Shown here: positions 9,565 to 57,007 of the stretch, piece after piece
Layout of the letters: each line of letters opens with the position of its first letter
Position numbering within the stretch: position 1 is the first letter of the stretch
NCBI RefSeq assembly: GCF_001447785.1
Contig: NW_015176494.1
Location: 376,794-440,793 of the forward strand
Length of the DNA: 64,000 bases
Direction: 5' to 3'
Origin: Gekko japonicus
Lineage: Eukaryota
The notes under the pieces: generated by a model
What the model saw: only the letters and a program-made list of their open reading frames with translations
Told to the model about the DNA's origin: nothing
Database searches by the model: none
Made by a program: the position numbers and the translations under genes

Positions 9565-9703
9565 ATGGAGGACTTATCAGGGCATTATGACTTCTACATC
9601 GGGCTGGGCCTGGCCCTCGGCTCCAGCCTGTTCATTGGAGGGAGTTTCATCCTAAAGAAGAAGGGGCTTCTCAGGCTGAGTGGCAGGGGCTCTGTCCGAG
9701 CAG
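9565..9703 (+). CDS. NIPA2-like first coding exon
   Basis: 139 nt, [46 protein letters not shown]+g; gtaat donor. Confidence 0.9.
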
Positions 9704-9769
9704 GTAATGACAAAATTTATTACTGAAGCTGACAGATTCCGGAGGTTGGGGGGTGGGTGGGATCCCAAG

Positions 9770-10122
9770 TACCTTGTGGCTAATAGCCACTGATGGACCT
9801 CTGCTCCATATGCTTATCTAATTCCCTCTTGAAGCCGTCAATGCTTGTAGCCACCACCCCCTCCTGTGCCAGTGAATTCCATGTGTTAATCACTCTTTGG
9901 GTGAAGAAGTACTTCCTTTTATCTGTTCTAACCCGACTGCTCAGCAATTTCATGGAGTGCCCACGAGTTCTTGTATTGTGAGAAAGGGAGAAAAGTATAT
10001 CTTTCTCAACCTTCTCGATCCCATGCATAGTCTTATAAACCTCAATCATGTCACCCCTCAGTCGTCGTTTCTCCAAGCTAAAGAGCCCCCAGCGCTTTAA
10101 CCTGTCTTCATAGGGAAAGTGT
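9770..10122 (-). mobile_element. CR1 LINE fragment (ORF2 C-terminus), lacking its 3' end
   Basis: LEKRRLRGDMIEVYK...TRGHSMKL...FFTQRVINTWNSL. Confidence 0.9.
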
Positions 10123-10250
10123 TAGTGTTAGTAAGCATAACACGATCAGACACTTCTTGTCCTCTAGCTGAAAGAACTTCTTTGTGCTTTCGGCTTCCCA
10201 AAGCAAGCCAGCTTCCGGCCTTCCTTAAACCACTGCATATTTCATTACAG

Positions 10251-10411
10251 TGCAGTTTTAGCTGCCTACTTCCTGAATGAGCGGCTAAACGTCCATGGCA
10301 AGATCGGCTGTATTCTCAGTATTTTGGGCTCTACCGTCATGGTGATCCATGCCCCGCAGGAGGAAGAGGTCTCCAGTCTGGAGTCAATGGCAGAGAAACT
10401 GAAAGATCCAG
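10251..10411 (+). CDS. NIPA2-like internal exon
   Basis: 161 nt, (S)[53 protein letters not shown]; cag acceptor, gtacc donor. Confidence 0.9.
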
Positions 10412-13927: not shown

Positions 13928-14565
13928 GATTCATTGTGTTTGCCGTGTGCGTGCTGGTGAGCTCTGTTCTTCTCATCTTCGTGGCCGGGCCTCGTTATGG
14001 ACAGAGCAACATCTTAGTGTACGTTCTGGTCTGCTCCGCCATCGGTTCGCTCTCAGTTTCATCCGTCAAAGGCTTGGGCATTGCCATTAAAGAGCTCTTC
14101 GCTGGGAAGCCTGTTTGGAAAGAACCGTTGGGCTGGATCCTCTTGGTGTGCCTCGTGATCTGCATCAGTATCCAGATCAACTACCTGAACAAGGCCTTGG
14201 ACATCTTCAACACCTCTGTGGTGACTCCCATCTACTACGTTCTCTTCACCACCGCCGTTATGACCTGTTCGGCCATCCTCTTCAAGGAGTGGCAGCACAT
14301 GGTTCTGATGAACATCATCGGCACCATCAGCGGCTTCCTCACCATCGTGTTTGGCATCTTCCTTCTGCACGCTTTTAGAGACGTCCCCTTCACGGCAGAC
14401 CTGCTGCCTCTGTTCCTGAGGCGCGACCGAACAGACGTGCAGGCAGCTTCTTGGAGAAAGGGGGACAAGAACTCGTCCTGCCTTCACCAGCCCCTTTTGG
14501 AATCAGAGGACAGGCTCAGAGAGGGGGGAGAGAAAGCAGAGGTGGAGGGAGACCAGAGTTTCTGA
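13928..14565 (+). CDS. NIPA2-like terminal coding exon
   Basis: ttcccag acceptor; (G)[10 protein letters not shown]...[27 protein letters not shown]...GIFLLHAF...; TGA stop. Confidence 0.92.
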
Positions 14566-17335: not shown

Positions 17336-18710
17336 ACATAACAGAAACCATGTTGGATCAGGCCAATGGCCTATCCAGTCCAACACTCTNNNNNNNNNNN
17401 NNNNNNNNNNNNNNNNNNNNNNNNNNNNNNNNNNNNNNNNNNNNNNNNNNNNNNNNNNNNNNNNNNNNNNNNNNNNNNNNNNNNNNNNNNNNNNNNNNNN
17501 NNNNNNNNNNNNNNNNNNNNNNNNNNNNNNNNNNNNNNNNNNNNNNNNNNNNNNNNNNNNNNNNNNNNNNNNNNNNNNNNNNNNNNNNNNNNNNNNNNNN
17601 NNNNNAACTGTACACTGTATTCCAAATGAAGCCACACCATCAATTTATACAGGGGCATTATGATACTGGCTGATTTGTTTTCAAGTCCCTAATAATCCCC
17701 AGCACAGCATATGCCTTTTTTATTGCCATTGCACACTGAGTCGACATTTTCAGTGAGTTATCTACCATGACTCCAAGATCTCTCTCCTGGTCCTCTCCTG
17801 GTCAGTCTCCGCCAGTTCAGACCTCATGAATGTGTATAGTTTGGATTTTTTGCTCCAATGTGCATTACTTTAAATCTCATTTGCCATGTTGATACCCACT
17901 TGCCCAGCTTCGACAGATCCCTCTGGAGCACCTCACAATCCTCCCTGGTTCTCACCACCCTGAACAACTTAAGTGTCATCCACAAACTTAGCCACTTCAC
18001 TGCTTACTCCCAGCTCCAAATCATTAGGGAACAAGTTAAAAAGCACCAGACCCAGTAATAAGCCCTGTGGTACCCCACTGCTTACCACCCTCCACTGTGA
18101 AAACTGTCCATTTATACTCATTTTCTGTTTCCTGTTAATTAGCCAGTTTTTATTCCACAAGAGGACTTATCCTCTTATCCCATGAGTGCTGAGTTTACTT
18201 AGGAGCCTTTGATGAGGAATTTTATCAAAAGCTTTCCGGAAGTCTAGGTAAACAACATCTATTGGGTCACCCTGTCCACATTTGTTGACCTCAAAGATCT
18301 CTAATAGGTTAGTCAGACAAATTCTTTCCTTACAAAACCCATGCTGATTTTTCCTTAGTAGCTTTTGTTCATCTATGTGCCTACTAATTCTGTCTTTAAT
18401 AGCGGATTCCACCAACTTACCTGGTATCAACGTTAGACTGACCAGCCTGTAATTTCCTGGATCTCCTCTGGAACCCTTTTTAAAGATGGAGGTTACATTA
18501 GCTACCTTCCTTGGGAATGGAGGCAGATTTAATGATAGACTGCATATTTTTGTCAGGAGATCCGCAAGTTCACATTTGAGTTCTTTCAGAACTCTTGGAT
18601 ATATGCCATCTGGGCCTGGTGATTTGTCAGTTTTTAATTTGTCCATCAGTCGTAGGACCTCCTGTCTCGTCACCTCAATCTGACTCAGGTCTTTCAGCTC
18701 CCCTCCTGAA
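17336..18710 (-). mobile_element. CR1 LINE, degraded reverse transcriptase and 3' end
   Basis: KSPGPDGIYPRVLKEL, PGNYRLVSLT, VVYLDFRKAFDKIPH, SGVPQG, KFVDDT motifs. Confidence 0.92.
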
Positions 18711-20201
18711 ATCAGCTGTTAGTTTAGTAAGCCCCTATTTCCCCCACCCAAGAATAAATTTTCACAAGGTTAGAAAGGAAGATCCTGTGATCCTTGCACA
18801 AATGGATTGCAGGATCCAACCCACAGTCTCTAAACATTGGGATGGGGAAAATCCTAGACTATTGGTGCCATTCACTGCTGGTTTGGAGTCTCCAACTCTT
18901 TGGCTTTGGTTAGGTGAGACATAAGCTGCTATATGAACAAACCCTGGAGGAAGCTTCAGGTAATCCTTGCTCTTCTCCACTCCAAACCAGGCAAAATACT
19001 TAAGAAACTTCTGCTTTGGGGGCAAGCTGACATTTGTTGTTACAAGACAAGCAGCTTTTGGTGTGTTCTCCCTGCAAGTCATGTGTCCAAGCTATATTAA
19101 CAGTGCAGATCCAGAAACTGATCTGCAAGAGCCCTGTTATTTGCAAGAATATAGTATTGCACTTGGTAAAAAATTATGGAAACTGTGTTTATAGGACCAT
19201 AGCCTTATTTAGGAGTAAAAGCCCATTCAACTCAGTAGGAGTTATTTTCAAGTAAATGTGCAAACTGGGTGTTACCATAAAATGATTTCTTCTCTTTCTT
19301 GTACTGCTGGGTTGGATTTCAGGAAAGAGAAGAACACTGGTCATTTCCTGGCTATCCCTACTGGGTCATGGATCCAGCTGTGGGGCTTGCTCTCAGCCTC
19401 AGTAGTCCCACCCATAAGAAAAATCAACTCCCATTCTGGTATTTTTGTTGTAAAGGGAAATTGTCCAAATGCTAATCCAAAGGGTAACATTTTAAAAATA
19501 CAGCAAGCACCAGAAAGAGCAACATGCACGGAACGTAGTCTTAAATTCACTGTTTTCCCCTCTGCAACCAAGAGCACCCAAGTAATTCTGCATTTCTTGT
19601 TGCTCAATATCCTCAAATCGATTGAATACATAAAGCAGGTGAAATGATGCCCCCTTACATTTGTTCTCTGGTCAGTGCCCAACTCCTTGAAACAAGAATG
19701 AAACGCTACACCTAAACTCTACACGCTAAAGATTTGGCTTCCTGGAGGATACATCCACATGGCTAGACAGATAAGGGTTTTTTTTAAAGTTATGGGTTCT
19801 GCAACATATGTACACATTTAGGAACATGTGGAAGGTTGATAAAACATGGGCCTTGTTTGCAGCGTTATTTGTGTGGCCTAAAGAATAAAAACATGGTTGC
19901 CTGTGCAAATCAAACTCTGTCTCATCTACTGATGGGTTCCATCGGTTTAAGCAACAATTTAGATGAGAAAAAGAAACCCACACAAGTAATCCTCCCCCCT
20001 CCCCAGCCACAGATTTTCAGAGAAATAGGCAACAAGATTAGTATAGCACCAGTACACTTTTTTCATTCTTGTGTAATTTTTTGCACAGATGGCAATGATC
20101 AGATTATCTAAAACTAACGGAAACATCCTGATTAATTTCGAGGCATGCTTGCTGGACTAGCATTTGCAAAATTCTAGAAAACAAAAAAACATACCCGTAA
20201 A

Positions 20202-31240: not shown

Positions 31241-31312
31241 TCAGGGGTCTTCGTTTGCTAAATCCAAAATGTTTCCCAGGAGGACTTGGAAGGTGGGGCG
31301 TTCCTCAGCTTT
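31241..31312 (-). CDS. BTK: BTK exon 19 (last coding)
   Basis: 72 nt, KAEERPTFQVLLGNILDLANEDP*. Confidence 0.93.
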   Translation of the reverse strand, partial: KAEERPTFQVLLGNILDLANEDP

Positions 31313-32339
31313 CTGGAAAAAATGCAAAAGCTTCCATGGATGAATGCAAAACAAGCATTTAAATGCTGAACAAGTACATTAATAACGACAGCATTTTCAT
31401 ACCACTTTCAATTGTCCAAAGTGTTTCACAAAAATTATCTTGCTGTTATCCCTAAAACAACCTTGGAAGGTAGCCTAAGTTATTTTTTTAATCCCCATAT
31501 TCTTGATGGGGTGCTGACACTGAAAGATGGACTTGCCTAAGGTGACCTAGCAAGTTTGTGGCAAAGACGAATTGAATCTGGGCAGTCTCTTAGCTACCCA
31601 ACTACACCAGCTCTCATTTAAAGATAAGGGCTCCATCAGCAGAAGGTACTGGAATGGGTTACTGCAGACTGGACCAGATTCATATTGGAGGAGGTGCCCA
31701 GATTTTAACCTGGCACCTCTATTCCTGCATTTTTTTCCTTTAAAGAACAACAATAACTTTGTAAAGCAGGCTAGGCTGATAATTAGTGACTTATGGCTGA
31801 CTAGGGCTTCCCGGTGTAAATCCAATACCCCGTGCATGGCATCATGCTGGCACTCTGCCAATGCATTGCAAGTGCCAATGAACCTTTGCAGAAGAGTTCA
31901 TGGCTCAGTAATAGATCACATGCTTTGTATGTGTAAAGGCTCAGGTTCCATCCCCAGGGTCTGTAACGAAAGGATCAGAGGTGGCAACAGGGCTGGGGAA
32001 CCCGTCTGCTTACTAGAACTGTTGCCAACTAGAAGAGACAATCTTGGGCTAGATAGACCAGTGGACTGCCTCTGTGCAAGGCAGTGCCTAACAAGCTTTT
32101 CTAACTGCCCCACACTTTGTCCCTTTGCCTGTCATGCTTCCATTGGTTAATCCACCATGATGTCACAGTAGGGCTCTGAGATGTTACAACCCCTCACACT
32201 GTCATTGGTTTAGCTGTTCTGAAGTCACACACGCTTAGGCTAGGTAGTTGGTTGCTAAGAAGAAACTGTAGACTTTAGAATAGGAACTCTAGTGTCACTA
32301 AATTAATGGGTTGCCTGCACACCATGGCTTGTCTCATTG

Positions 32340-32912
32340 TGGCCAGGGTCCGACCTACCTGAGGGACCGCCTTTCCCCATATATACCCCCAAGACCACTT
32401 TGGTCGGGGACACAACACCGCCTGGTGATTCCAGGTCCCCAGGAGGCAAAGCTTGCTGCGACCAGGGCCAGATCCTTCTCAGTGGCGGCCCCCACCTGGT
32501 GGAACGAGCTCCCGGAGGAGATCAGGGCCCTGCGGGACCTTATGCAGTTCCACAGGGCCTGCAAGACGGAGCTCTTCCACCAGGCTTTTATATAGGGGCC
32601 GCCATTTCTACTACTACCACCACCGAAACAACGGGGCTGGGAGCGGTCCCCGAAAGAACTGCCATAAATTTGCATGGCACTGATGCTGCTGGACTGGCTT
32701 GGACTATCGATAGGACAATTTCACCTAAGGAAATGATCAATACCATCCTCAGAGACCATCTTGTTTGTATGGAGCACTATTTGTTTTGTTGTGATTTAAT
32801 AGTTTTTACTGTTTTACATTGTTTTTATGTATGAGCTTATGCCCCTGTGTAAGCCGCCCTGAGCCCGTTCACGGGGAGGGCAAGGTAAAAATGCAATAAA
32901 TAAATAAATAAA
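32340..32912 (+). mobile_element. L2-type LINE 3' end (similar pieces 4935-5130, 51630-51810)
   Basis: GPTYLRDRLSPY...RSFSVAAPTWWNELPEEIR...KTELFHQAF; (aaat)n tail. Confidence 0.8.
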
Positions 32913-35091
32913 TTGTAGCTGTTCAATGAAGATCCATTAGCCAAAGGCAGATGGCACTGGCTTGCGGTGAAATGTTCAGAGAACTTTGGAGAGTGCAACT
33001 GCTGCCATTTAAGGCAAGAGGAGATAGAGGCTAGAGGATATAGATATAATCAGAGAAGTCGAAAGGTTTAAAAATGAGGACTAGAATCTTGAACCTGATG
33101 TCAATGGAGGCAGGAACCTGCTACAGAAGGAGAGGCAGAGAGATGTGGCTGGGAGGGTTTTATATATTTTTTAAAATATTCAGCTCCAGAATTCATTTGC
33201 TCTTTGTGACATGGTGGGATGAACCTTGTAATCTGCTTCTCCTTTAGAAAGCACAGAGGGAGCTCTCAACAGCCTCCCATCTAGACACAGATAGGGTCCT
33301 CATCTCCCTTATGTTGTGCTAATGAACTGCATGCTTCTGTAATACCTTGGGCCTAGTAGCTCTAATTGCATACTATGCTTCAGATATTCTAATTCAGGAC
33401 CACCATTAAGCTTAGTCTAGAGATATAGAACAGTCAGGCCTATTATGCATGGGTGTTTTCCCTCGCTTTCACTGTGCATGTCTGTGGGATTTTCTTTCTT
33501 GTTCTGCACTGATTTTCCTCCCTTCAGTGCTTCATTTGCTTTCTGGTCGCTGTTTTCCTGGGTTTTCTGAGAGTGCTTTTGTGCTGATTTTTCCCTTGTT
33601 TCACTTCCAAGCCGAAGGTAAGTCAAAAGATTCCCTCAGATTTCCCCCCTACCCTTCTGTTGTCCCTCGAAGGTCACTTCCCTGCCCACATTGAGGTCCT
33701 CCTGCCCACTCTGCACCTTCCACCATCCTCCCCCTTCATCGATACACAAGCTCCATTTACCCCGTGTTTTTTAATTTGTAGGTTTTTTGACAAGTGGCAT
33801 GACTCTAATGATATGAGACTATCGCTAGTCTTGGATCGCTAGATTTAAAAAGATTAAAGGGGGGGAGTGTAAAAGAAGCTGCGCAAGGTTTAGTTCCCTG
33901 CTGGTATTGACTTGAAAGGGGGGGTCGGAGAGGAGGCAAACGGCAGCATCCCCAGTGCAAAAAAGAAAAGAAAAGGATTTCAGTGCTTCCTGCAAACAAA
34001 ATAAAGGGGGGGATCATCACTATGGAATTAAATTGACATGAGCTGTAAAGAGAGACAGGCACTGGTGTGGGATGCCTAAAGCCTTGATAACATTTTTCCC
34101 TTTAATACTTTAGTGAACAAAGTGGGGGGGGGGGCATGTTGACAGTCTCTGGAAGCCTAACATTAAAATGGCAGCTGAGCCACATGGACCTTCTGCAAAC
34201 CACCGAACCTAAGAACTGTTTGGAATTTGGAGGACAGAGCACAATCTGCACAGGGCATGCTCTAAATAACTGCCAAAATCGCAACCAGTGTGCAGGATCA
34301 AATTAGAGCATCACAAAGAGAAAACCACACCCATTTGCAAGGAAGGGCAAGAAATTAGTATTACTATGTAGCTGCACTAGGGCATTGGCGAAAATACCCC
34401 CCCTTTTTTCAATTTAGTGGCACAAGACTAAAAAAGCTCTCCAGAGCTTCTGCCAGAGGCCTCCTCCTCCATACAAATGGCAACCCTGTGCAAAGCATGG
34501 TGGAGTTGCAACCAACTTTGCAGAGGCACGCACATGCACACACATTGCCAACAATCACAGTTTTCAATGCTAGGGTCGGTGGGTTCTACCATGCGTTCTG
34601 TTCACTCAATACGTTCCCCAATATTATGAGATCGTGTGACTCTTTCGCTCCACAGTGGCCAATAACACAGCAGAGGATCCCTTAGTACTCAGCAATACGG
34701 AAAAGGGGGTTGCTCAGCTGCTTGTCAGTTTCAAAAAGGCCTAGTCAGTTTCAACATTGGGTTTCCTCCCTTTGTCTATGTTGCTTTCTGTTCCCTTTCC
34801 TTCACCGAACTAATGCTAAAATCATATATGCACAAAACCTGAATCACGAAGATTTAAATGGAAAAAGCTTGCTGGACGCTACTGCGCAGCTCCAATAGGA
34901 CAAATGCATACATTTTTTAAAATCCTTGGGACCCCCCCCCCCCACATCACAAGAAAAGTGCATTTTAAAAATTGTAGCTGCAGAATAAATACACTGGAGG
35001 AAAAATAATGGTGCGTAAGGTGGTCTCTGAAAATCTGCAGTAAGGTGTGGGTGTGTAATGGGCCTTGGGATGGTGGTGGGGGATGCCTTAC

Positions 35092-35350
<259 letters not shown>

Positions 35351-35732
35351 TTATTTACTTCATCGGTACCCCACCTTTCTCCTCAATGGAGGCTTACATT
35401 GTGGCTTACATTTTTCTCCTTTCCTCCATTTTATCCTCACGACAAACCTGTGAATCAGGCATGTAAGTTAACCACAGACATGCTGAAAGTGATCACAGCC
35501 ATACTTCCGATGAAAATTTTATTGTGAAGCCAGCAGGATATATTAATCTATGGCACCAGACGTGGAAGCATTCACCAGGATCATCATCATATTTCCAAGG
35601 GAAAATAAAAGATAGCAACAACCAACCCAGATTTTTAAAATTAGTAAATTGTAACGTTTTAATTAGGGGCATCCAAACTTTTTAGCCCGAGGACCACCCT
35701 GAAGTAACCATTTGGCAGGCTGAGCCAGATCA

Positions 35733-35960
<228 letters not shown>

Positions 35961-36917
35961 TCAGCCTAGTTCTGTGAGGTGATAGAGCCTCAGCCGTACT
36001 AGTCTACAGGTAGGGGCTGTCAAGCTCCCTATCAAAAAGGTTCCATGGCACACGGAAAATTAGCACATCAAGGAAAAGCTACTGTGGAATCCTTCTCACT
36101 GAAGTTTGTCTGTGAAGGGATTTTTTTTCCTTTTGGGTATTTGTGTGTGTGTATGTTGGACTCGACTGCGACTGAACAACAATGTGTGTGTGTGTGTGTG
36201 CGCGTGCGTGCTTGCAAGCCTGGAAGTCATGGTGACTTCTGGCGACCCCTAGTGGGGCTAGGATGTTTCAGAGAGGTGGCTTTGATATTACCTGCCTCTG
36301 CGTCCTGGCCCTGGTATTCCTTGGAGGTCGCCCTTCCAAGTACTTGCCAGGGTTGGCCCCGCTTAACTTCTGAGATTGGGCTTGCCTGGGCTATCCAGGG
36401 CAGGGCAGGAATTTTCTTTATATGGTGGCGCATTCTATCATGTGAGCCCCCACCCACAGACTGAAGTGCTACAGCCCAGACACAGGTTCACCAACTCAGT
36501 AAGAACAGGGTCACTGTCTGTAGAGTTGTCCTTTTTTGCCTAGTTCCTGACCCTGTATCAAATTTAAAATGGGCAGAAACTCAGAGGTGGTGATGGAGAC
36601 AGCTTCACCTGGTGAATTGCTGTCCACCATCCAGCTGTTGAGAGTACTGCTAGGGGGGGAAAGGGGTAGACATTATCAAGGTAAGCTCTGACTATTCAAA
36701 GTATGTTTCGCTTAATATCAGTTGGGTCATAGAGAAAGCAGATGTGACATGCCTGCCTCCCCCCCCCCAAAAAAAAAATACTGCACAACCATTCAAGGAG
36801 AGAAGGGTATAATCTGGAAGAAATTGAAAGAAGAATTATCAGAAGGGGGGGGGCTGTCACACACCTCAGTGTTTTATTCTTTTCCCCCCAGACAAGATGT
36901 CTTTTGGGTGGCTAAGA

Positions 36918-37524
36918 CAGGGCTCTCCAACCTTTCTGAGACTGGACACCTTTAGAATTCTGACACAGTGTAATGGGCACAGCCATAAAAGGGCTGCCAC
37001 ACAATGGCTGCCGCAGCTTACTTCCAGTCACACAGTGAAGATCCTTGTGCTGTGGTGACAGCTGCTGCCAAGGTTTGTGTAATGGTTAAGACTGCAGACT
37101 CTAATCTGGGAGAACCGGGTTTGATTCCTCACTCCTCCTCATGCAGCTGCTGGTGTGACCTTGGGTCAGTTACAAGTTCTCTTAGAGTTGTTCTCTCACA
37201 AACAGTTCTCGAAAGAGCTCTCTCAGCCTCACCTACCTCACAGGGTGTCTGTTGTGGGGAAGGGAAGGGAAAGGAGATTGTAAGCCGCTCTGAGACTCCA
37301 AGTGAAGGGGAGGGTATAAAATCCAATCCCTTCTTCTTTTCAAAGCAATGTTTTTAAAACTTTGCACTGCCAATCAAATTATCCAGTGGCCAATCAGAAA
37401 CCATGCTGGGCAAAAGACCCACCTGGCCCTATGCACTTTCTAAAAACAATTGGTGGGCACCAGGACGGGTGTTGGCAGGCATCACGGTAGTGGGTGCCCA
37501 TGAGCAGCATGCAGGGGATCCCTG
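36918..37524. mobile_element. hAT (Charlie-like) MITE with nested SINE
   Basis: cagggctctcc / ggggatccctg termini; TSD ggctaaga/ggctaagg. Confidence 0.75.
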
Positions 37525-38475
37525 GGCTAAGGACTCGAGGTCACAGATGTGAGGGCGATCTGGCTGCGACATCTGTCACCCCATTGGTTGCCAGGGTTGA
37601 TTCGACTTGAGATCACACTCTATTCTGCACCCATGACATCAGCTTGAAAGAATTTTAATAACTGGATCATTCATTTTTTTTCAAGGAACTGATCGTTCGT
37701 CCTCTTTCATTGCCAGCTGATTTGATGAAGGGGACTCTGAGCTGGCAGACGGCCTGCTGATAGCTGGGATTCTTTCTTTTTGAATGAGATGCCCATCAGA
37801 CCCTGGAGAGAGACGTTCTTTTAGCTGAGGGACACCGAGAAGAGCCCTTTAGTGTTTTTTGAAGTGGGGTGGGGATATGAGACTTTCTAGCTGGAGACAG
37901 TGGGAAACGGGTGGGGTGGCGCAGGCTGGGGCAGGACTCCCTGATCACTCCCTGAGGCTCTGCCTGGCCGTGCCTCTATGCCCCCAATGGAAATCTGCAT
38001 GTATAGCTGTAGATAAAACAAAACTAGAAGACTTCTCTCCCTCTTATCTAGAGGAAAGTAACCCACCCGCCCCCACACACCCCTACACTCACACACTGCC
38101 CCCGGAATTTCCTCACCACTCGGGCAAGTNNNNNNNNNNNNNNNNNNNNNNNNNNNNNNNNNNNNNNNNNNNNNNNNNNGGACCCACAAGAGAAGAAGGT
38201 GATGGAGGCAGATCAGAAAAAGCTGCAAATGTTTGAAAGCAAGTGGCAGTGCACAGGGCAAGAGGGAAGCAGGACAGGTGAAATGATGGAGGGGAATGAA
38301 GTGAAACGGGGGAGAGCAAGAAAAGGCAAAAAAGGGGGGGAGGTAGTTACAGTGCAATGCTAAACACCCTTCTACATCCATTGAAGTCAATGGGCTTCAG
38401 AGGTTACATGTCTGCTTAAAGTGCATTAGTAAACATCCCAGTTCCCTCCACATATGTGCATGCATGCAAACTGAC

Positions 38476-38540
38476 CTGGAGAGGCCAAAATCAGATACTT
38501 TGATGGTGCCTTGTCCGTGCACCAAACAGTTGCGAGCAGC
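38476..38540 (-). CDS. BTK: BTK exon 16
   Basis: 65 nt, AARNCLVHGQGTIKVSDFGLS. Confidence 0.95.
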
Positions 38541-39124
38541 CTGTTGACAGAAAAACAGTGAGGCTTTCAGGGGAGCAGCATTACAGACCCACAGGGCAGA
38601 GTCGACCCTGCCCTGTCACCACCACCTCCAGGCCCCCGCAAGAGAAAAGAAATTCAGCGACTCAGGGAACTGACTGATTCCTGTCCGCTTCTGCAGTAAA
38701 TCAACTGCCGTGGTCATGTCCCTTTTAGGAACAGCCATTTTAGGCATCCTTTGCATCTCTTGTCAGGTGGAATACTTGCAGGTGAACTGAATGCCTCCTT
38801 CCTGCATTGTGCAGGGGGTTGGACTAGATGACCCTGGAGGTCCCTTCCAACTCTATGATTCTGTGAGCTGAAAAAACTGGATGTCAGCCAGCTGTGGCAC
38901 CAATGGCAGGTTCTGGGCCAAGCCTTGATATAAACGATCTATGCACCACAAACAGCATTAAAATCTATAAAAACTGCTATATCATAGGCAGTTGTGAATT
39001 TTTGGAGGTTCCCTAATCGTATGGTATAGTTATTTTAACATGATCCTTTATGTTAAAAAGCTTGTCCTTTAGTTTCACTTTTAACTTGTCTTGTTGGTTG
39101 CCATGTCCCTTCCTGAGCCAATCA

Positions 39125-39658
<534 letters not shown>

Positions 39659-39675
39659 TCAGAGGGGCAGACTGC

Positions 39676-39880
39676 TGCCCTGCCCTGGATAGCCCAGGTA
39701 AGCCCAATCTCGTGAGATCTCAGAAGATGAGCAGGGTCGACCCTGGCAAGGACTTGGATGGGAGACCTCCTTGGAATACCGGAGGCGGGAGGCGGGGGCA
39801 GGCTTTATTCAGCCACCTCTCTGACTATCCTCCAGACCCCCAGTAAGGGTCAGTCACCAGAGGTTGCCATGACTTCCGGG
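39676..39880 (+). mobile_element. 5S rRNA-derived SINE; copies ~2329-2520, 29837-29980, 49150-49350, 55089-55300 (+) and 6265-6430, 36225-36405, 49820-49965 (-)
   Basis: Head similar to 5S internal sequence (gatctcggaagctaagcagggtc...ttggatgggagacc) fused to a non-5S tail. Confidence 0.7.
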
Positions 39881-41289
39881 TGCACACACTGTCAGTCATC
39901 AGAGGTCGCCATGACTTCTAGGTGCACACACACTCACATGCACACACGTGCACATATGAAAAATACACACACACAAAAAGAAAAGAGATGCAGACTGCTG
40001 GCCTGATTTCTGCTGCACTTCAGTGCCACTACTGCGAATGGCCAATGATGGTATTGGTATCAGCCTATGGACCAACAAGGTTCTGCCCCAGCCTGTAGCC
40101 ACAGGGGGCATTTGGGGGCAATGCCCCCCAGGGACTAGCGCTGCCCCCCAGACAAAAATTCCCCCCAAACCCTGGGAAAATTTGAAAAACATTTATTAAA
40201 AATGGTTTTTTTAAAAAATGTAAGATACTGGTGGGTGTTCCAAAATGACTCTATACACAGTGAGAGAAGCTTCAGTCTCCTTTTCTTTTTTCCATGCCAA
40301 AAAAACAGGTTTCTAAAAATTCAATAAAATAAAGTAAAATAAAATTGCAAAATAGAGTCGAAGATTCCTCCCCCCCCCCCCAGCTTACACAGAAAAGCAG
40401 CCCGGAAACGAGTCTCTCCAACCAAACTAGAGGAGGACTAGAGGTCACAGTGGAGCCGGAGCTGCTTCTGCTGCTGCTGCTGCAAGAGGAGCAGCAGGTA
40501 CAGCCAGGGTGCCCCTCCTGATTTCCCCATACCCCACCAACCAAATTTTTCTGGATATGCCCTGTCCTCAAAAGCTTCTGACTGTGATTTGGCTCCTCAG
40601 TCTGAATGACTTCTTGTCCAGGGCAGAGATAAATTGCTCACGTAACTACCGGAAGCTACACAATTGCTTCCTGTCTGCTTTCTTCTTGGCTCAGCTACCT
40701 GCCTGGCTGGTAGGGTGCAGTAAAAAGAAGCTCTCAAGACTAAAGCTTTAGATTCATAGCAAAAGAGAGGCTTTGAAATTCAGGGATGGGCAGGCAAAGC
40801 CAGGAGGGACAACAAGAAGACTCCAGACCAAAGTTTGATGTGAACTTGAAGGGACTAAACTTTACCACCCCTGTCTTTCTTCTACTACTTTCTGTAACAG
40901 AAGAACTTCATACTACTTCATATCTACATAGTGTTTTAGGGGGTTCAACAAACTTCCCACGGATCATCTTGTTGTAAACCTTATGAAGACCCTGCAAACT
41001 GGATCTTCCCCATATTATTTCCCCCACATTTCAGGTGGGCAGGATGACTTACAAAGCATGCAGGTTGCCTAAGGCCACCTAATGAATTCCGGGCAGATGC
41101 AAGATTTGAATCAGAGACGTTGTCTTTCTCTTAGCCATTCTGCTACATTAGGTACACTCGTTTTTCCTCAGGTAAGGTTGCTTTCTCCATTCTGGCCCAT
41201 CTCTACAAGCAAGCACTGATAAAACTTATCTGCCCAGCAAGGGCTGTCTTACTACCTGTTCAGGACTGAATTGAGACCTGGGTTTCCTA

Positions 41290-41568
41290 GTTTGGTGTAG
41301 TGGTTAAGTGTGCAGACTCTAATCTGGGAGTACCAGGTTTGATTCCCCACTCCTCCACTTGCACCTGGCTGGATGACCTTGGGCAAGCCGTAGTTCTGAT
41401 AAGAGCTGTTCTCAAAAAAGAGCAGTTTCTGTCAAGAGCTCTCTCGGCCCATCTACCTCACAGGGTGTCTGTTGTGGGGAGGGGAAGGGAAAGGAGTTTG
41501 TAAGCCGCTCTGAGACACCTTTGGGTAGTGAAGGGCGGGGTATACATCCAAACTCTTCTTCTTCTTCT
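41290..41568 (+). mobile_element. tRNA-derived SINE with (CTT)n tail (Squam3-like); copies at 1959-2085(+), 27221-27505(-), 37073-37340(+), 52290-52565(-), older 51241-51480(+)
   Basis: A/B-box head gtttggtgtagtggttaag...ggtttgattcccca, conserved body, ttcttcttc tail. Confidence 0.75.
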
Positions 41569-42005
41569 TGCCAATGCTGATTTCTCCACGCCTACTACCT
41601 CTCTGCATATCTCACCTAAAGCCAATCACGCCTGCTGTTGTCATTTGCCTGCTATTGTCATTCGGCATCTGAAATCATTCCACTCTCCAAGACAGAAGGA
41701 CAGATGGACTCACATTCTAGCTGTATTTGAAGAAGTGAGCAGTGACTCATGAAAGTTCATCCCCTGCCACAGATGTTGTTAGTCTTGAAGGTGCTACTGG
41801 ACTCTTGCTCTTTTCTACTGCTACAGACAGACTTAACACGGTCGGCTACCCAATCTTGATCTGTCTGTTCAGGGTTAGCAAATATTCTTACTCATCGGAT
41901 CTTCCTGAGAATTATTTGGAGAGTCTGGTGTGCCATTGTTGGGGTTGCTTGCTCTTGCCATAAGGGACAGACCCCAAAGGGGGGGAAAGAATCAGGGACC
42001 ACTCA

Positions 42006-42460
<455 letters not shown>

Positions 42461-43537
42461 TTACAAAACCGCATTTGATACAGAAATCACCCAGTGAGTC
42501 AATGCAAAGCTTCTGTCTACAGAGCTCCTTATATACCCCAAGCTAGAAGCATCAATGTCAGATTCAGTGCCAAGATAGCCAAACCTGTGACTAGTTTAAA
42601 CAATGCACATTGAGAAAATGCACATAATTAACTCTCCGTTTTTATGTACTATATGGTGCAATTTTTACAACTTCACATAATTTATTCAGGTTTTGTTGTT
42701 CATGGAGAGGGGTAAAGAGCTACATAGGGCACTGAAGCTCTCCCCCCACCCCCCTGCTGGAAACGATCAACCTCCTGGAGGTTTCTGCAGATTTTGCTCA
42801 CACACTGAAGTATATTTGCATAGCCGTAAGGGCTAGAAACTTTTCTTTTTAAATGTTAAGGTGAGGTTTCCGGGAAGCAGCACCCAATACCTGATGTGTC
42901 CACAAAATTGCAGCATACATACAATCCTGATGTATGTGACCCAATTTATACCTGTTCCAGAACCGAGGGTAATACTTTACCTAGACAGTATCACTCCAAG
43001 CTTCAGGAAGGACTCTGTAGATTTCAAAATCACTCCATGAAAATGCTCCATGCATATAGAAAATTGGCATGCCAGAGAGAGGGCTAGGCTGATTTTTGTT
43101 CTCCCTGTCATGCTAGATTTCTACATGCAAGGGGAGGGTTGATTTTTGGCAGAGGGAACATTCATGCCTGCCCTCCTTCTCCTGCAGCCTGAAGTGGTGC
43201 AGCCCAGGAAAAGCATTACCATTTGAATCTGCTGATATTTTCAAAAACTCCCTGCCACCCTTAAAGGTTTTGGATTCCAGCCATCCTTGCTCTCATTCTG
43301 GACAGCAGCCATTCATTCAGCCACACTTTTCACTTTGCCACACCAGTTTCCCATTTGTATTTGAATGGCATGGACTAGGCCCTCTCAAGTCAACCAGAAT
43401 GTATCCCATCATACTGATTTAAGGAATTCCTGTCCCAACGTATGCTATAAATAATACACAACTGGTTATAGTACCTTCTTGGTCTTTGCCAGCTGCCGGT
43501 ACCCGCTTCCCCCTCCCTCTTTTCATCACAGCATTCA

Positions 43538-43765
<228 letters not shown>

Positions 43766-44640
43766 TTATGGCAGAACTTCTGCATAAAGACCGGGCACTC
43801 CGTGTGCAAGGGGGGGGCAGTGTGAGGAGATGGTCTCAGACCACCTATCTTGGGCAGCTGTCACACCTGAGAAAACTAGGGGTGTCTCGAGATGGCTTTT
43901 TGATCTGGGTGGCCGCACTGCATAGTTAGCTTATGGAACTCACTGCCACAGGATGTAGCAGTGGCGACAAGCTTCCAGAAGTCTTTAAAAAGAGTTTAGG
44001 GAAGTTAAATAAAGGCAGGACCAGCAGTGATTATTAGCCAATGATGGTTCCTTTGGGGCCTCTACCTTCAGAGGTTTGAATGCCAGTTTTCTGGGGACAT
44101 CTCTGGGGGAGGCTTTGGACTCTGTGTACCTACTATGGGCATTTGTAGGAAACTGGACTAGATGGACCACTGGTCTGACTCAGCAGGCCTCTTCGTAGGT
44201 TCTTATTGGAGGAGGATTCAAAGGAAGGCCAGCTCAGTAGTTTTTGGACAAGGACTGAATCAGGAGTCAGATACCACCACCTGGTCAGTAACTGGGAAAA
44301 CTGGAATGTTGGCAGAGGTTGAAACTGATAAATGAAGCAGACATTGACCGAATCTGCATATTCATATTGAAGTAGTTTTGCTTTGCTGTGACGCTGTCTT
44401 CCTTTGGATCGGTATGAAAGTGGCTTCCAGCCCACACACAAAAAAAGCGGGAGCCGTAAACTGAAGAAGACAGGAAAGGATAATAAGGCTACTGGAAGAA
44501 GCCAGAACGGAAGCCACAACAGCTACGTGATTTGCTTTCAAAACTGTTCTGGGGTCCTGAGCTGCTCTGCAGGTTGGCCTTTCCTGAGGACTAGTGGGCT
44601 GCAGGGTCTCCCCCATTTCCCCCTCAACAGGCCGCACTTA

Positions 44641-44856
<216 letters not shown>

Positions 44857-45139
44857 TCAGTGCTGCATACAAGTCCTTCCTATGACTTTGCCAAAAGTCA
44901 CTTGGGGTGTCCTGTTTGTATCATCTCTGACAAAATTTTATTGCAATTTTTTATAAAAATTAAAGATTTACCTTTTTAAAAGCTAACAAACCCAATTATC
45001 TCCCTAAGCCATTTTGTTGAATTTAGAGAGGGTTGCCCAACTGGCCCTAGAGGAAAATGTCCTGTCCCTTAATGAGTGGAAGTGGGCAGCAGACACTTTT
45101 CATGGCATAGAGATAAATAGCACCTTAATGGTAAATAAT

Positions 45140-46250
45140 ATAGAACCATAGAGTTCAAAGGGACCTCCAGGGCCATCTAGTCCAACCCCCCTGCGCAGTG
45201 CAGGAAATTCACAAATACCTCCCCCTCCACACCCACAGTGACCACTGTTCCATGCCCAGAAAATGACAAAAAAAACCCTCCAGGATCTCTGGCCAAAGTG
45301 GCCTGGAGAAAAATTGCTTCCTGACCCCAAAGTGGCAATCAGCATTTCCCTGGGCATGTAAGAAAGGGCCACGAGAACTAAGCACTGAGGCAACCCTTCC
45401 TGCCCTCCCTCTCAGGATCCGCCTGAGTTCACAGAATCAGCATGGCTGTCAGATGGCCATCTAGCCTCTGTTTGAAAACCTCCAAAGAAGGAGAAGCTCA
45501 CCACCTCTGGAGGAAACCTGTTCCACGGAGGAACTGCTCTGTCAGGAAGTTCTTCCTAATGTTTAGGCGAAAATTCTTCTGATTGAATTTCAACCCATTG
45601 GTTCTGATCTGACCTTCTGGGGCAACAGAAAACAACTCCATACCATCCGCTATATGACAGCCCTTCAAGCACTTGAAGATGGTTATCATATCACCTCTCA
45701 GTTGTTTCCTCTCCAGGCTAAGCATACCCAGCTCCTTCAACCTTTCTTCATATGACTTGGTCTCCAGAACCCTCACCATCTTCGTTGCCCTCTCCTGGAC
45801 ACGTCCCAGCTTGTCTATATCCTTCTTAAATTGTGGTGCCCAAAACTGAACACAATACTCTAGGTGAGGTCTAACCAGCGCAGAGTAAAACAATACCATC
45901 TCTTCACATGATCGGGACACTATACTTCTGTTGATACAGCCCAAAATCACATTTGCCTTTTTAGCAACCACATCACACTGCTGACTCATGTTCAGTGTAT
46001 GGTCTCCTAAGACCCCTAGATCCTTTTCACACATACTACTGCCAAGACAAGTCTCCCCCAACCTATAGTTCACATTTGATTTTTCCTACCTAAATGCAGA
46101 ACTTTACATTTTATGCCCATTGAAATTCATTTTGTTTTAGCCCAGTTTTCCAGCCTGTCAAGATCATCCTGTATCCTGACTCTGTCTTCTACTGCATTTG
46201 CTACCCCTCCCAATTTAGTATCATCTGCAAATTTAATAAGCATTCCCTCT
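45140..46250 (-). mobile_element. CR1 LINE 3' fragment
   Basis: EKDLGVL...LVRPHLEYCVQFWAP...RGDMITIFK; ttctat-type tail. Confidence 0.92.
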
Positions 46251-46974
46251 TATGCCATTAAGCCTCTCTTAANNNNNNNNNNNNNNNNNNNNNNNNNNNN
46301 NNNNNNNNNNNNNNNNNNNNNNNNNNNNNNNNNNNNNNNNNNNNNNNNNNNNNNNNNNNNNNNNNNNNNNNNNNNNNNNNNNNNNNNNNNNNNNNNNNNN
46401 NNNNNNNNNNNNNNNNNNNNNNNNNNNNNNNNNNNNTGTGTTTTGGGTGGCGGTTTCTCGGGGATATAAGCCGGCCTGCGAGCCGGCCAAAGTCGTCTTG
46501 TTCCGGATAGAATAAAGTACGCTTTGCTGAAATCACTCTCAATTTGCGTACTTTTCAGCACCCTTGTTCCCAAACCCACATTTGTCAAGGAAATGCAAAT
46601 GTGGGGACAGACCGGGTATCTGTAGGAGAGAGCGAATGGGCGGAAGGGATGGATGCCTAGCCATTCCAAAATCCACAAATCCTGCCCTGCAAATTCCTCC
46701 CCAAATCATGCCTCCCCACCTCCCTACTCTATTGGGCTTCTGGTTTAACAGCCTGGTTGAATGGGAAAAGGCAATTTAAAATGGCCAGAGCCAGGGGCAT
46801 GTTTGAAGGCGAGAACTGGCAGGTGAGGAAAGCATTATGCACCACTGATAACATGACTGTGCTCCCCCCTCCCCATAAAGAACAAACAAACAAACAAACA
46901 CATGATTGCTAATCCCATGTCTTCCTTCAAATGTGTAGTTCTGTCTTCAGAAGTGCAGTTTCGAGAGCACTCAC

Positions 46975-47037
46975 TCAAATATCTCCAGGGAATCTCTTGC
47001 TTCAGTGACATAATTGCTTGGAATGTAACCGTCTTCC
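46975..47037 (-). CDS. BTK: BTK exon 9
   Basis: 63 nt, EDGYIPSNYVTEARDSLEIF (SH3 end). Confidence 0.93.
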
Positions 47038-47460
47038 CTGCCAAGTGGAAGGAAAAGACCAATAAGCCACTCTCCAAGGAACAGATGGAGACCCAAGAAG
47101 AAAGACAAAGGTAAAACTGAGTTGACAAACGGTAGAACACATGGCACATCTACACAACATATCGATATTACAGCAGTTAAACTAGCATGGCTTCTCCCAA
47201 AGAATGCTGGGAACCATAGTCTGTTTAGAATGTAGATCATGATGGGTAGCCATGTCTGTCTGTAGCAGCAGAAAAGAGCAAGAGTCCAGTAGTACCTTAA
47301 AGACTAACAGAATCTGAAGATCTGAAGAAGTGAGCAGTGACTCACGAACACTCATACCCTGCCACAAACTTTGTTAGTCTTTAAGGTGCTACCAGACTCA
47401 TGCTCTTTTCTGTTTAGGATGCACAGCGTTCACAGTTAGAAGATCTAACTCCACCATAGT

Positions 47461-47670
47461 AAAAGGTAAAGGTTCCCTTGCTCGAAAGCCAGTCGAATCC
47501 GACTCTAGGGTTGCGGTGCTCATTTCCGTTTCAAAGCCAAAGAGCCAGCGCTGTCCGAAGACGTTTCCGTGGTCATGTGGCCGGCATGACTAAACACCAA
47601 GGTGCACGGAACACTGTTATCTTCCCACTGAAGTGGTACCTATTTATCTACTTGCAATTTCTTGCTTTCG
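47461..47670 (-). mobile_element. 5'-truncated Sauria SINE
   Basis: Flanked by aactccaccata TSD. Confidence 0.8.
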
Positions 47671-50600
47671 AACTCCACCATACCACACCTCAAACTACAA
47701 GTACCTTAGAAAAAGGATAGATCCAGGTGGTCAGCTGTGCTGGTCTGAAGCAGTAGAACAAATTTTGAGTCCAGTGGCACCTTTAAGACCAAAAGAATGA
47801 CTGCAGTCCGAACTAGGTGTTACATTATGCTCGTGACCACAGTGGGGGCTTGCAGTCAGACAGTAGCAGCAAGTTTCCCATCAAAACTCAGTTCTGAGGA
47901 GTGCGGAACCCTAAATCAGATCAGGACCACGAAGTGGAGGGAGGGGCTTCAGCCTCCCACCCCACCCCATTGTCACAATCTGAAAGAGCCGGAGGGAGCA
48001 TTGAAATGGATAGAATACACATGCATCCAAACAAGAAGGCTGTTTCAGGTCAGGAAATGCGGGGCGGGGTGGGTGGGTGCCACACTCTGCAAGTGTGATT
48101 CTTGGCCCTCTATGTAGGGGGTACATCATTTCTGCATTCTGTACATCTCCTAGCACATTGCTGGTGTAGAGGAAATAGAGCAGTGGCAAGAAATCTGAAG
48201 GAGCTCTTGAATGTGGTTCATCTAGTTCCAACTCCACAGGAAGAAGGAAAGGCAGCTATCAGAAAGTTAATTGACGGGATACCAAAGCCTTAAGCTGTTT
48301 CAGATCATGTCCCAAAGGTGGGGGGGGGGGGGTTTGCACATAAGGCAGGGGGATTATAGTGGTATCTGTAACTCTCATGCAAGTGTGTGCATGCATGCCC
48401 AAAGAATGTGCTTTTAAGCACAAAGGGAAGGGTGAGGAGAGACATGGTACTTCCTAGCACTGATTACTTCCATGCTGTCCACTAGGTCTGGAATGGCCCA
48501 GCTTCATTCACTCAGTTAGAACAGAGAATCCAGACAATGGTGTTGGCAACCTGTTGCATTATAGTGATTGCTATGTTGTTTCTTTGTCTTTTTGCAGACC
48601 AGATATGTAGCCAATTTTTAAATAATGCAGCTATCGCATAAGCGTCCACAGGTGGATTGACAAGGTTCTATGCAGTTTCCTTTCGTTTAACTGTTCCGTT
48701 AATCTTCTCCCCATTTTCTGCTTCTTTTTGGCTCGATTAATTATTCCCTGCTTAGTTGCTGAATGATCAGTTCTTATTTTCGGGGAAGGAACCAAAACAA
48801 CTTCCAGTGTGCAGTCAAAACTGCTATCATTTTGCAAAAAATAAAATAAAAATGTAATTTCATCATCTTCACCACCATAAAACAATGAGAGTGGTTTTGC
48901 CTACAAATGAAAAACAATACTCAATTCCCCCACCTCCAAATTTCTCAGTACTGATAATTGTTTGTAATGGCCTATGGCTAAATACAATAAAAACCTTCTC
49001 TCTCTCAGTACTGATAATTAACAATTGGTTTAGGATTGACCTGATCAGAGAACAAGCTGTAAAATCAAGGAACAAAAAGGAAATTGTAGAGAGGAGCATA
49101 ACCTTAGGTGAGCAAGACCTTTAGTTCAACTAGACATGATTTAGCAGACCAATAGTCCAGCCTAGCCTGATCTTGTAAAAGTTTGGAAGTTAAGCAGGGT
49201 TTGCCATGGTTAGTACTTGGATGGGAGACCACCAAGGAAGTTCAAGGTTGCTACGCAGAGGAAGGCAGTGGTAAACCACCTCTGCTTATCTCTTGCCTTG
49301 AAATCCCCATGGTCCTGGGGTCACCATGAGTTGGTTGGGACTTGACAACACACAATTATTATTATTAGACATTACTTCAATCAATCTTTGAGATTGGATC
49401 GTCCAGTCTTTTAGAGTGGATTTGGATCATCATCACATGGTAAACAGAGAGAGAGTTTGATCTTCTGCTCCCGCACGATTTCACTAATTAAAACCACCCT
49501 TGCTCTTTAAAAGTCATTTAAATGAGCAAAATCTTTTGCCTTTCTTTTGTCCTTTAAAAGGCACGGGGAGCCCCACTTCGTTTTGCAAAAACCATATGGA
49601 GTGCGGAAGGGTGACATCCCTCCTCCCCTTCCTGCAGGGCCCAATCCACATTGGCCCCAATGCAGCTGTAACTGTGCTTTAAAAGATGCTTGGGAAGCTT
49701 CTCACCATGGATCTCTCAGCAAATGGTCCATTTTGACCCTCACTCCTGAGTGGACAGTAGGACCTTGTGGTTGTGAAGACAGACACTGCTGGGTTTTTAC
49801 AAGGAATGTGTGTCATCACATCGCAGCTGACTTATGGAGATCATGGGGTTTTCAAGACAAGAGACTAACAAAGGTAACCTGCCTCTGTGGCGTGTCCCTG
49901 GACTTCCTTGGTGGTCTTCCTTGCTTAGCTTCCAAGATCTGGTAAGATTGGGCTAGTTTGGGCCTATAGCACTACATTAAACACTGCTTGGAACCACAGG
50001 CTCTTTTCAAATCACCATTCTAAACTGGATGTTATTTGTTGTTGGCCTGATTTCATGTAAAGCGATACATGGACAGGGATTTCATACAGTGAATTTCTTT
50101 CCGTTACTGAGCCATCTCTGAAGCGCTATGGTCATTTCAAACAGTGCTGCTTTTCCCCCACCCTTTTTCACTGTGCAGTCTTCCTGACCTTTTTTTTGGC
50201 CATTCTATAGCGCTAAATCAATATAGCACTTCAGTGCTATAGCGGCACCATTGAGATGACTTCATTGACCTCATGGAGTCATGCATCTCAATGGTGCTGC
50301 TATAACACTGAAGTTTAGCGCTGTAGCTCTCAACATAGAATGTTTTAAAAAATGTACGAGGAAGATTGCACGGTGAAAAAGGGTGGGGGAAAGCGGCATC
50401 GTAGGAAGTGCTGTGGGCATTTTAAACAGCAAACCACAGCGATTCAGAAGCACAACGAAGGGGCTGAAAATGGAAAAAAGCTGTTTCCCTCAAAAGCGAC
50501 TCAACCACGCTTTGCTAGCCCGACACAAGCGGGTTTGTATGAGCAGGTAAATAAACTCCGCTAGCGGCCGGTTATTAAAAGGGGTTTGTCTGAAATGACA

Positions 50601-50744
50601 GGGGGAAAACCCATTAGCAGCCAGTTACTTAAACGGGATACGAAGGCAGGTTGAAAAGGGCCATCATTTCAGTTTCCCTTGAAGCAGAATGTGGGAGAGG
50701 AATGGCTGAGAAGGACGCCAGGGATCCTCTGCACTGGGCTCTCA

Positions 50745-51014
<270 letters not shown>

Positions 51015-51037
51015 TTACCAGAGCCTGCAAGTCATAC

Positions 51038-51105
51038 CTGTTCCTCCTCTGGAGTGGGCGGTAGAGGCTTCTCTACTTTGTGGTGAGAATGGACATTTCT
51101 GAAAC
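51038..51105 (-). CDS. BTK: BTK exon 7
   Basis: 68 nt, FRNVHSHHKVEKPLPPTPEEEQ (proline-rich region). Confidence 0.9.
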
Positions 51106-52071
51106 CTTCAGGAACCGGAAAACAGAGCACATTGATCCTGGTGCATTCATAAGAGATGTTAAAAATGCTTTCAGCTTCTTTTGTGCACATTTGTGTGTTA
51201 CCGTCATGGTACACAACACACACCAGAGGAAATATAACAACCGAGAGCTGGCATGATGTAGCAGTTAAGAGTGTTGGACTAGGATCTGAGAGCCCCAGGT
51301 TCAAATCCCCACTCTGCTGTGGAAACTCACCAGGTGACCTTGGGCCTGTCACATACTCTCAGCCTAACCAACCTCATCGGGTTGTTGTGAAGATAAAATG
51401 GCGGCAAGGACAAGGATTTAGGCCATTTTGGTTCCCCATTGGGAAGAGAAACAGGGTATAAATGAAGCAAATAAATAACAATAACGATAATTCTTATTTA
51501 CTCTTAATACTCTCCATTAATTAAATACTCTCCATATAAAGCATTATGTGGCTGTTGGTTTTGGATGATTGCCAGCATTAGGGAGGAGGGACATGACCTC
51601 CGAAGGGCTTTGCGAACTGCCAATCAGCATTCTCCTGGTGGTCCCTGGCCTCAGAGATGTCTGTCTTACCTCAACTAGAGCCAGGACTTTTTCGGCCCTG
51701 GCTTCTACCTGGTGGACTGAGCTCCCCTATGAGATCAGGGCCCTGAGGGACCTTTTACAGTTCCACAGAGCCTGGAAGACGGAGCTCTTCCACCAGGCTT
51801 TTAGTTGAGGTGGCGGGTGTCCCCCCTCTATTGGGCCTCCCCTTCAGTGGGTCAGATCTTATTTATTTATTTATTTTTAATCTTTATATCCCGCCCTCCC
51901 CGGTGGGCTCAGGGCGGCTAACAAGGGCAGGCCATTAGCCATGCCATATATAAAACATATTAAAACATAATAAAACATCCAACATTAAAACCACAGTACT
52001 CAATCCATTACTAATGTCCTAAGTCCAAGATGGTAACTCCACAGTTCCAGATGGTACTCCCCTGATGTACA

Positions 52072-52162
52072 TGTGTTAGATCTGATAGATGTGTTAGATC
52101 TGATAGATAGATGTGTTAGGTCTGATAGAGCTGTTAGATCTGATAGATAGATCTGATAGATT
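52072..52162. repeat. Minisatellite (gtgttagatctgatagat)n
   Basis: About five imperfect units. Confidence 0.8.
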
Positions 52163-52615
52163 TGTGTTACTATCTGGGAGCCCCAATCTGAAATAGACCT
52201 CCTCTGTTGAGGCTTTGATTAGAAACATAGGAATATTATTGTATTTTATCTGATGTATTTAAATTGTTTTTAATTGTCTCTGTATTATAGAAGAGAAGAG
52301 AGATTGGATTTATACCCCGCCCTTCACTACCCAAAGGAGTCTCAGAGCGGTTTACAATTCCTTTCCCTTCCCCTCCCCACAGCAGACACCCTGTGAGGTA
52401 GGTGGGGCTGAGAGAGCTCTCTCGAGAACTGCCCTTGAAAGAACAGCTCTGAAAGAGCTTGTGACTGACCTGAGGTCACACCAGCAGGTGCACGTGGAGG
52501 AGTGGGGAATCAAACCCGGTTCTCCCAGATTAGAGTCCGTGCTCCTAACCACTCCACCAAACTGGAACCTGCCCTGAGCCTGCTATGCGGAGAGGGTGGG
52601 ATACACAGCGAATTA

Positions 52616-52891
<276 letters not shown>

Positions 52892-52951
52892 TCACAATAG
52901 GCATCTGATTGCCTGGACCCAGGTAGGGGGGGAGGGCATAATGTGTCTTTA

Positions 52952-53041
<90 letters not shown>

Positions 53042-55422: not shown

Positions 55423-55632
<210 letters not shown>

Positions 55633-56773: not shown

Positions 56774-57007
<234 letters not shown>

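Follow-up and report, generated by a model that had tools for sequence, protein, structure and literature searches.

An annotated gene that lacks part of its coding sequence may reflect a lesion in the animal or a fault in the assembly, and this is the question raised by a NIPA2-like gene of Gekko japonicus. We analysed a window of 64,000 nucleotides in which coding exons A and D of this gene are separated by 547 nt of ungapped sequence (66 nt of intron, 353 nt of CR1 LINE and 128 nt of intron), with no trace between them of two further exons, here called B and C. The six N gaps of the window all lie elsewhere, none of them between exons A and D and none inside the NIPA2-like gene. Coordinates are collected in Table 1.

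Table 1. Features of the NIPA2-like locus and of the neighbouring regions used for comparison (positions within the 64,000-nt window).
Feature	Position	Strand	Remarks
Coding exon A, helix 1	9565..9703	+	139 nt, ends in phase 1, intact GT donor; Pfam PF05653 positions 1-39
Intron stub after exon A	9704..9769	+	66 nt; G-rich tract 9741-9761 just left of the junction
CR1 LINE fragment	9770..10122	-	last 113 ORF2 codons, open; stop 9780-9782; ~10 nt of 3′ UTR; tail absent; both ends truncated
5′ insertion junction	10120..10142	+	17-nt motif common to the second CR1 copy, then 7-nt tail-end match at 10136
Intron stretch taken as coding in the RefSeq model	10175..10250	+	entered via cryptic in-frame acceptor 10175
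Coding exon D	10251..10411	+	161 nt, frame requires phase 2; Pfam positions 90-142
Final coding exon E	13928..14565	+	638 nt, intact; Pfam positions 144-295
Second CR1 copy	17336..18718	-	54-nt tail, 216-N gap (17390-17605), then RT region
BTK, internal quality control	31244..56941	-	lesions at 53926-53945, 44727-46974 and near 35155

Exons A and D are out of phase, as the first-pass annotation had recognised, and splicing one to the other reads V-Q-F-stop, with the TAG at 10259-10261. Exons A, D and E sum to 139+161+638 = 938 nt, which is out of frame, and adding the 148 nt proposed earlier restores a frame of 1086 nt, or 361 residues and a stop, the length of the Paroedura picta orthologue. 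We therefore confirm that two internal exons are gone from the assembled sequence. The suggested division into exons of 57 and 91 nt fits as a sum, while the split itself could be matched only to two bird models that lack exactly the first 19 residues. In the Pfam search the loss appears as a 50-position hole in coverage of the PF05653 profile, between positions 39 and 90; counted as an exon sum it comes to 49 residues, and the segment corresponds to residues 47-96 of orthologues. The claim that the missing peptides are absent was borne out within the window, where tBLASTn with residues 47-96 (first orthologue, whole segment) gave a best E of 0.16 among the matches listed, against E of 1e-14 to 1e-27 for same-sized pieces of exons that are present. 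Full-length queries from four orthologues match exons A, D and E only in tBLASTn of the window. Inverted, displaced or decayed versions of exons B and C were also considered and rejected, as motif scan and tBLASTn found none within the window; the two exons could sit in one of its six N gaps or on another scaffold. In-frame cryptic acceptors are present at 10175 and 10208. Upstream of the coding region, a likely acceptor lies at 9556, 9 nt before the ATG, and the GC-rich margins of an 876-N gap (7605-8480) may be close to a non-coding first exon.

Exons A and E show 100% identity to a Gekko japonicus model that RefSeq names NIPA2-like, and together with one BTK exon they match RefSeq models of this species on a single 470,544-nt scaffold. 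The RefSeq NIPA2-like model, of 337 residues, is reproduced exactly when the acceptor at 10175 is used, which keeps the frame and indicates that the annotator faced this hole too and spanned it with intron-derived residues. All three exons exceed the curated cut-off of 26.2 bits for PF05653 (Mg_trans_NIPA), and the last exon is 91% identical to that of Paroedura picta. We assign the gene to a BTK-linked NIPA2-like paralogue and not to NIPA2 proper. In a midpoint-rooted tree of 42 named proteins, made with the bridge masked and with unnamed and most fragmentary matches left out, the window gene is sister to Paroedura (support 100/98) in a clade of 24 rows (NIPA2-like / zgc:101583) that is split from 18 NIPA2 rows at 100/100. 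The gene's place in the tree and its synteny with TIMM8A and BTK agree on membership in this clade, whose genes lie on one scaffold with BTK in 17 species or more, as counted by eye. A separate NIPA2 was found in four squamates of the tree. The named eutherian matches that were classified all fall in the NIPA2 clade (11 of 11, none in the BTK-linked clade), and six of seven named marsupial matches are BTK-linked. The BTK-linked paralogue was found from sharks to platypus and marsupials; its absence from eutherians is suggested, such that placental mammals appear to have lost it, and its origin would lie in the genome duplications of early vertebrates. Duplicated genes with a tendency to be lost in amniotes have been described, in passages that do not name the NIPA2-like gene (PMC5901865). 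No report of the locus was found among the matches listed for literature on NIPA2 and gecko, NIPA family loss, and NIPA2-like/BTK/TIMM8A, a scope that leaves aside bioRxiv supplements and subscription papers, and no NIPA entry occurs in the supplements of PMC10776941 (2 files), PMC4673495 (1), PMC11140998 (6) and PMC5901865 (19). An intact two-exon TIMM8A lies at 22080-24891 on the minus strand, between the NIPA2-like gene and BTK.

The element between exons A and D is one that we take to be a CR1, a name that comes from the first-pass annotation and general knowledge and is backed by alignment to the window's RT-family copies. It is without its tail and all but ~10 nt of its 3′ UTR, as had been noted in outline: its tail-like score is 14, compared with 108 for the tail at 17336-17389, and two older CR1 copies carry 152 and 188 nt past the end of the ORF. 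The earlier comparison with the copy at ~17336 stands in that a 54-nt tail is visible there, but the two copies do not overlap and are presumably, rather than by alignment, members of the same subfamily. The left breakpoint, previously put near 9770, falls at about 9762-9779, and its exact position is uncertain, as the window has no assembled, intact 3′ UTR of this CR1 subfamily. We assume that gecko CR1 3′ UTRs turn variable or low in complexity at the very point at which the focal piece ends, a stretch that is assembled in neither of the young CR1 copies. The second copy carries its 216-N gap where 524-560 nt are expected, a gap at least 300 nt too short, for which an internal deletion could also account. 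The missing length roughly equals that of the focal piece, which is probably a coincidence.

At the opposite end of the focal piece, the 5′ junction agrees with that of the second copy at 16 of 17 positions, as does none of ~2000 random pieces, which suggests that an insertion did take place there. A 7-mer at 10136, 14 nt beyond the end of the focal piece on its 5′ side, repeats the final 7 nt of the second copy's tail; the background is 0.001, and the match is post hoc, the boundary having been chosen after looking. Possibly this 7-mer is the remaining half of a target-site duplication. It would imply that a tail once existed and suggests that the CR1 piece inserted normally, primed at its tail and with a short duplication; a later loss on the 3′ side would then be favoured over endonuclease-independent insertion, and the lesion would be best placed at the left junction. 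No target-site duplication survives at the focal CR1, the longest word in common being 4 nt. The earlier proposal that a deletion removed both exons and the CR1 tail thus fits in its anatomy and in its order of events (insertion, then loss at the left junction), but not as an established event in the animal. A G-rich tract 8 nt from the junction, noticed after the fact, has a G4Hunter score of 1.84, which is reached by 1.4% of random 40-nt pieces. G-rich tracts were tried as contig-end markers and rejected: one of the window's 12 gap edges scores at least 1.5, showing no enrichment, and the focal tract is accordingly no marker of a typical contig end. Rfam, run over 9000-19500, found nothing at the junctions. 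The junction motif stands at 10120-10136 and 18717-18732, where the two CR1 copies are cut at different points of the element and followed by nearly the same 16-17 nt, and its 9-nt core occurs at these two places only in the window; it may represent a target preference, templated addition or chance. A 7-mer is likewise common to the sequence just outside both CR1 3′ ends (9763-9769 and 17325-17331).

What the missing part would contribute can be read from human NIPA2, for which the cryo-EM paper describes helices 1-3 as a hinged lid over a cavity, E70, N73, G89 and S92 as binding substrate, and E70A or A75T as each sufficient to impair transport (PMC13500462). An AlphaFold model of an intact orthologue was discarded at a pLDDT of 45, and this paper was used instead. 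Human numbering carries over to the gecko gene, in which E70, N73, A75, G89 and S92 all fall in the missing part; the loss comprises helices 2-3 with substrate-binding residues and the glycine hinge, and takes four of the eight cavity residues (E70, N73, G89, S92, Q232, Y252, Y253, F256). The kept gecko exons resemble human NIPA2 (PDB 9Z6N and related; PMC13500462) in carrying F28, S192, K197, Q232, Y252, Y253 and F256. They differ from it in belonging to a paralogue, not an orthologue, in an assembly without helices 2-3 of the hinged lid and in a clade whose transport is putative, and from the rest of that clade in that residues 47-96 are absent. By likeness to human NIPA2, the paralogue would be a putative nine-helix Mg2+/nucleotide transporter. 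With helices 2-3 and the substrate-binding residues lost, the assembled allele is predicted to be null by either splice route, and, judged by its helices and cavity residues, it cannot be a working NIPA member. The canonical splice route meets its stop 150 nt ahead of the last junction, and a stop so far before the last junction is a decay signal.

The exons that remain show no sign of decay. Their 938 nt contain no stops and no indels, and the splice sites are intact. At the protein level, one Gekko-only change was found in 190 conserved sites, the branch length is 0.039 for Gekko and 0.092 for Paroedura, and Gekko was never the faster with any of 23 outgroups. Gekko has three private changes, where 24 other species have 1-13 each, and two of the three are common to Paroedura. 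The upper bound on neutral divergence is 1.3%, or ~6 Myr at an assumed rate of 2 per billion years and ~26 Myr at one of 0.5. The gene is therefore either intact in life or was very recently broken: of the marks of a unitary pseudogene, a disabling lesion is present in the assembly only, while relaxed selection and further lesions did not appear in the protein-level test. Counted by eye, both exons are found in 43 of 57 other named orthologue models and in 19 of 25 other squamate models. One or both segments are missing in 14 of the 57, some of them named isoforms or partial models; the part missing here often drops out of annotations, for a reason that this count does not show. The Sphaerodactylus model spans the last exon only. 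No Gekko protein with the missing residues was found among cluster representatives in the best 120 of 942 and the best 120 of 195 matches, and one could be hidden in Paroedura's 8-member cluster (~91% identity). One of four junction-crossing frames, compared with 1.84 billion proteins, gave three weak repetitive matches of 38-53% identity and no protein running across the junction, a result that favours neither reading.

Given the matches to RefSeq G. japonicus models on one scaffold, the window most likely comes from a short-read assembly built with k=29. The Gekko japonicus assembly is described as made from Illumina data with SOAPdenovo 29-mers, SSPACE and local gap filling, with a contig N50 of 21-30 kb (PMC4673495), as compared with 2 Mb in a later published PacBio assembly (PMC10776941), and fosmid coverage of the short-read assembly averaged 99.65% (PMC4673495). 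In older assemblies 26-60% of genes are reported with some false loss, missing exons being among the commonest kinds (PMC9516821). The gecko locus is like the false exon loss described there in its internal exons missing by a repeat and in the frameshift and splice errors of a neighbour gene, and is unlike it in that no N gap marks the place.

BTK offers an internal control for such errors. Its coding exons, which we take to number 18 in all, were found in 17 cases. In ungapped sequence, one BTK exon is 5 nt short and its donor is broken (53930-53945), and another, near 35155, carries two substitutions and an insertion of 4 nt, in stretches that six of the six other species shown have kept. 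A 55-nt exon is absent from an intron (44727-46974) that holds a 164-N gap beside a CR1, and the RefSeq BTK model, flagged as low quality, replaces it with intron-derived residues. Outside these three lesions Gekko BTK has one private change at conserved sites, and since the gene is otherwise conserved its lesions are best read as errors. A decaying sex-linked copy of the whole block was considered and rejected, the BTK changes being confined to three spots and TIMM8A being intact; temperature-dependent sex determination has been described in G. japonicus (PMC9026794). All three CR1 pieces with at least 100 ORF2 codons adjoin lost sequence, namely the focal piece, the copy with the 216-N gap and the one by the 164-N gap of BTK. 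The window also contains ten exact near-tandem repeats of at least 18 nt, two pairs of which (14667-14776 and 14926-15027, ungapped) look like both alleles of an indel set in tandem. These pairs and the exact tandem copies of 86 and 151 nt, also ungapped, are gap-fill scars; other assembly errors, as looked for around a false exon loss, are thus present nearby. Near-tandem copies at 676-893, 11363-11663 and 30911-30962, some differing by one indel, look like pasted alleles or gap-fill duplicates.

Taken together, the hole in the NIPA2-like gene is about equally likely to stem from an assembly error and from a genuine knockout of very recent date, and would be a well-known sort of event in either case; the weights that we attach to the explanations are judgements and not computed. 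We give an even chance to the possibility that the animal has an intact gene and that the assembly closed a gap falsely, and errors in ungapped BTK sequence together with unrelaxed NIPA2-like exons make this at least as likely as a deletion. A young CR1 would have inserted normally 128 nt upstream of exon D, as its tail-like match suggests, and such a repeat would break a contig in a 29-mer short-read assembly. Local gap filling might then have run from exon D through the CR1 body, halted at the start of the 3′ UTR and been joined to a contig ending just past the G-rich tract, with the tail and both missing exons, B and C, left out. Several points weigh against this sequence of steps. Collapse of two whole CR1 copies would retain a tail, and joining unique-looking sequence to a CR1 interior requires either spanning reads or an overlap arising by chance. 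Neither a tandem scar nor a cluster of errors occurs at the junction, and the reading frame of the CR1 is undamaged. In BTK the proven errors are small ones and the missing exon stands beside an N gap, G-rich tracts are not typical of gap edges, the missing-exon rates as given in PMC9516821 are not split between gapped and ungapped cases, and the fosmid coverage was high. The contrary reading, that of the first-pass annotation, is a real and very recent deletion after normal CR1 insertion, in which a break next to the G-rich tract was rejoined where the CR1 3′ UTR begins and exons B and C were removed. It has in our view somewhat less than an even chance, most of which goes to one haplotype of a heterozygous animal and little to a fixed deletion. 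The junction is clean, non-homologous and ungapped, the match at 10136 implies a former tail, the tract at the junction is in the top 1.4% for G-richness, the animal looks heterozygous for many indels, and the gene looks dispensable, given a separate NIPA2 in squamates and the eutherian matches. Against it, without decay only a young lesion fits and such lesions are rare per gene, most other squamate models have both exons, and local assembly errors are proven. In its fullest form, which we hold tentatively and below even, this would be gene loss caught in the act, an old duplicate knocked out in Gekko japonicus by a deletion from a G-quadruplex-like tract to a CR1 with the rest undecayed, and with a junction motif that may mark CR1 target preference or templated addition.

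Three further explanations carry far less weight. Endonuclease-independent insertion, whereby a double-strand break was repaired with a piece of CR1 cDNA and the exons disappeared in that one step, is very unlikely, even though the focal CR1 is 3′-truncated as well as 5′-truncated and has neither tail nor target-site duplication, as in non-classical L1 insertion with its loss of host DNA; 18 of 21 such human L1 insertions came with target deletions (PMC1920257). The focal element is a CR1 and not an L1, the tail-like 7-mer 14 nt past its 5′ end points, post hoc, to normal priming, and the L1 study itself cautions that deletions arising afterwards produce a like anatomy (PMC1920257). Recombination or collapse of two co-oriented CR1s into a chimera, the first after exon A and already 3′-truncated, the second before exon D, would explain the scar-free join, and CR1 pieces are common in the window; it demands an independent 3′ truncation of the left copy and is similarly improbable. 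Least credible is a gene functional in the shortened form of the RefSeq model, via the acceptor at 10175 and with a putative function. That model keeps the frame, is reproduced exactly and has no low-quality flag in its name, but it is without four substrate-binding residues and the glycine hinge in a region where single changes impair human NIPA2 (PMC13500462), its bridge is not hydrophobic (0.25 versus 2.0), and RefSeq made the same kind of bridge in BTK.

Should the false closure that we favour be correct, two adjacent genes of this scaffold have RefSeq models in which residues taken from introns mask the loss of exons, and a lack of gaps in this assembly is no guarantee of correct sequence. 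Should the deletion be real, it would provide a naturally occurring null allele of an unstudied NIPA paralogue that has been retained from sharks through to marsupials, and the redundancy of that paralogue with NIPA2 would be testable in a living lizard; as an exon-deletion allele at a LINE it would be a known kind of event, calling for no new mechanism. Among other repeats of the window, the last intron contains a diverged tandem array of ~4.4 copies of a 143-nt unit (12290-12990), and a tRNA-like match at 13466-13538 (Rfam, 38 bits) is probably the head of a tRNA-derived SINE. Five copies of a SINE-like 350-nt repeat, which we take to be the Sauria SINE, are 85-96% alike (2703-3051, 16178-16517, 16746-17067, 47462-47674 and 61249-61599); the copy at 16746 is without its head and is flanked by an exact 24-nt repeat.
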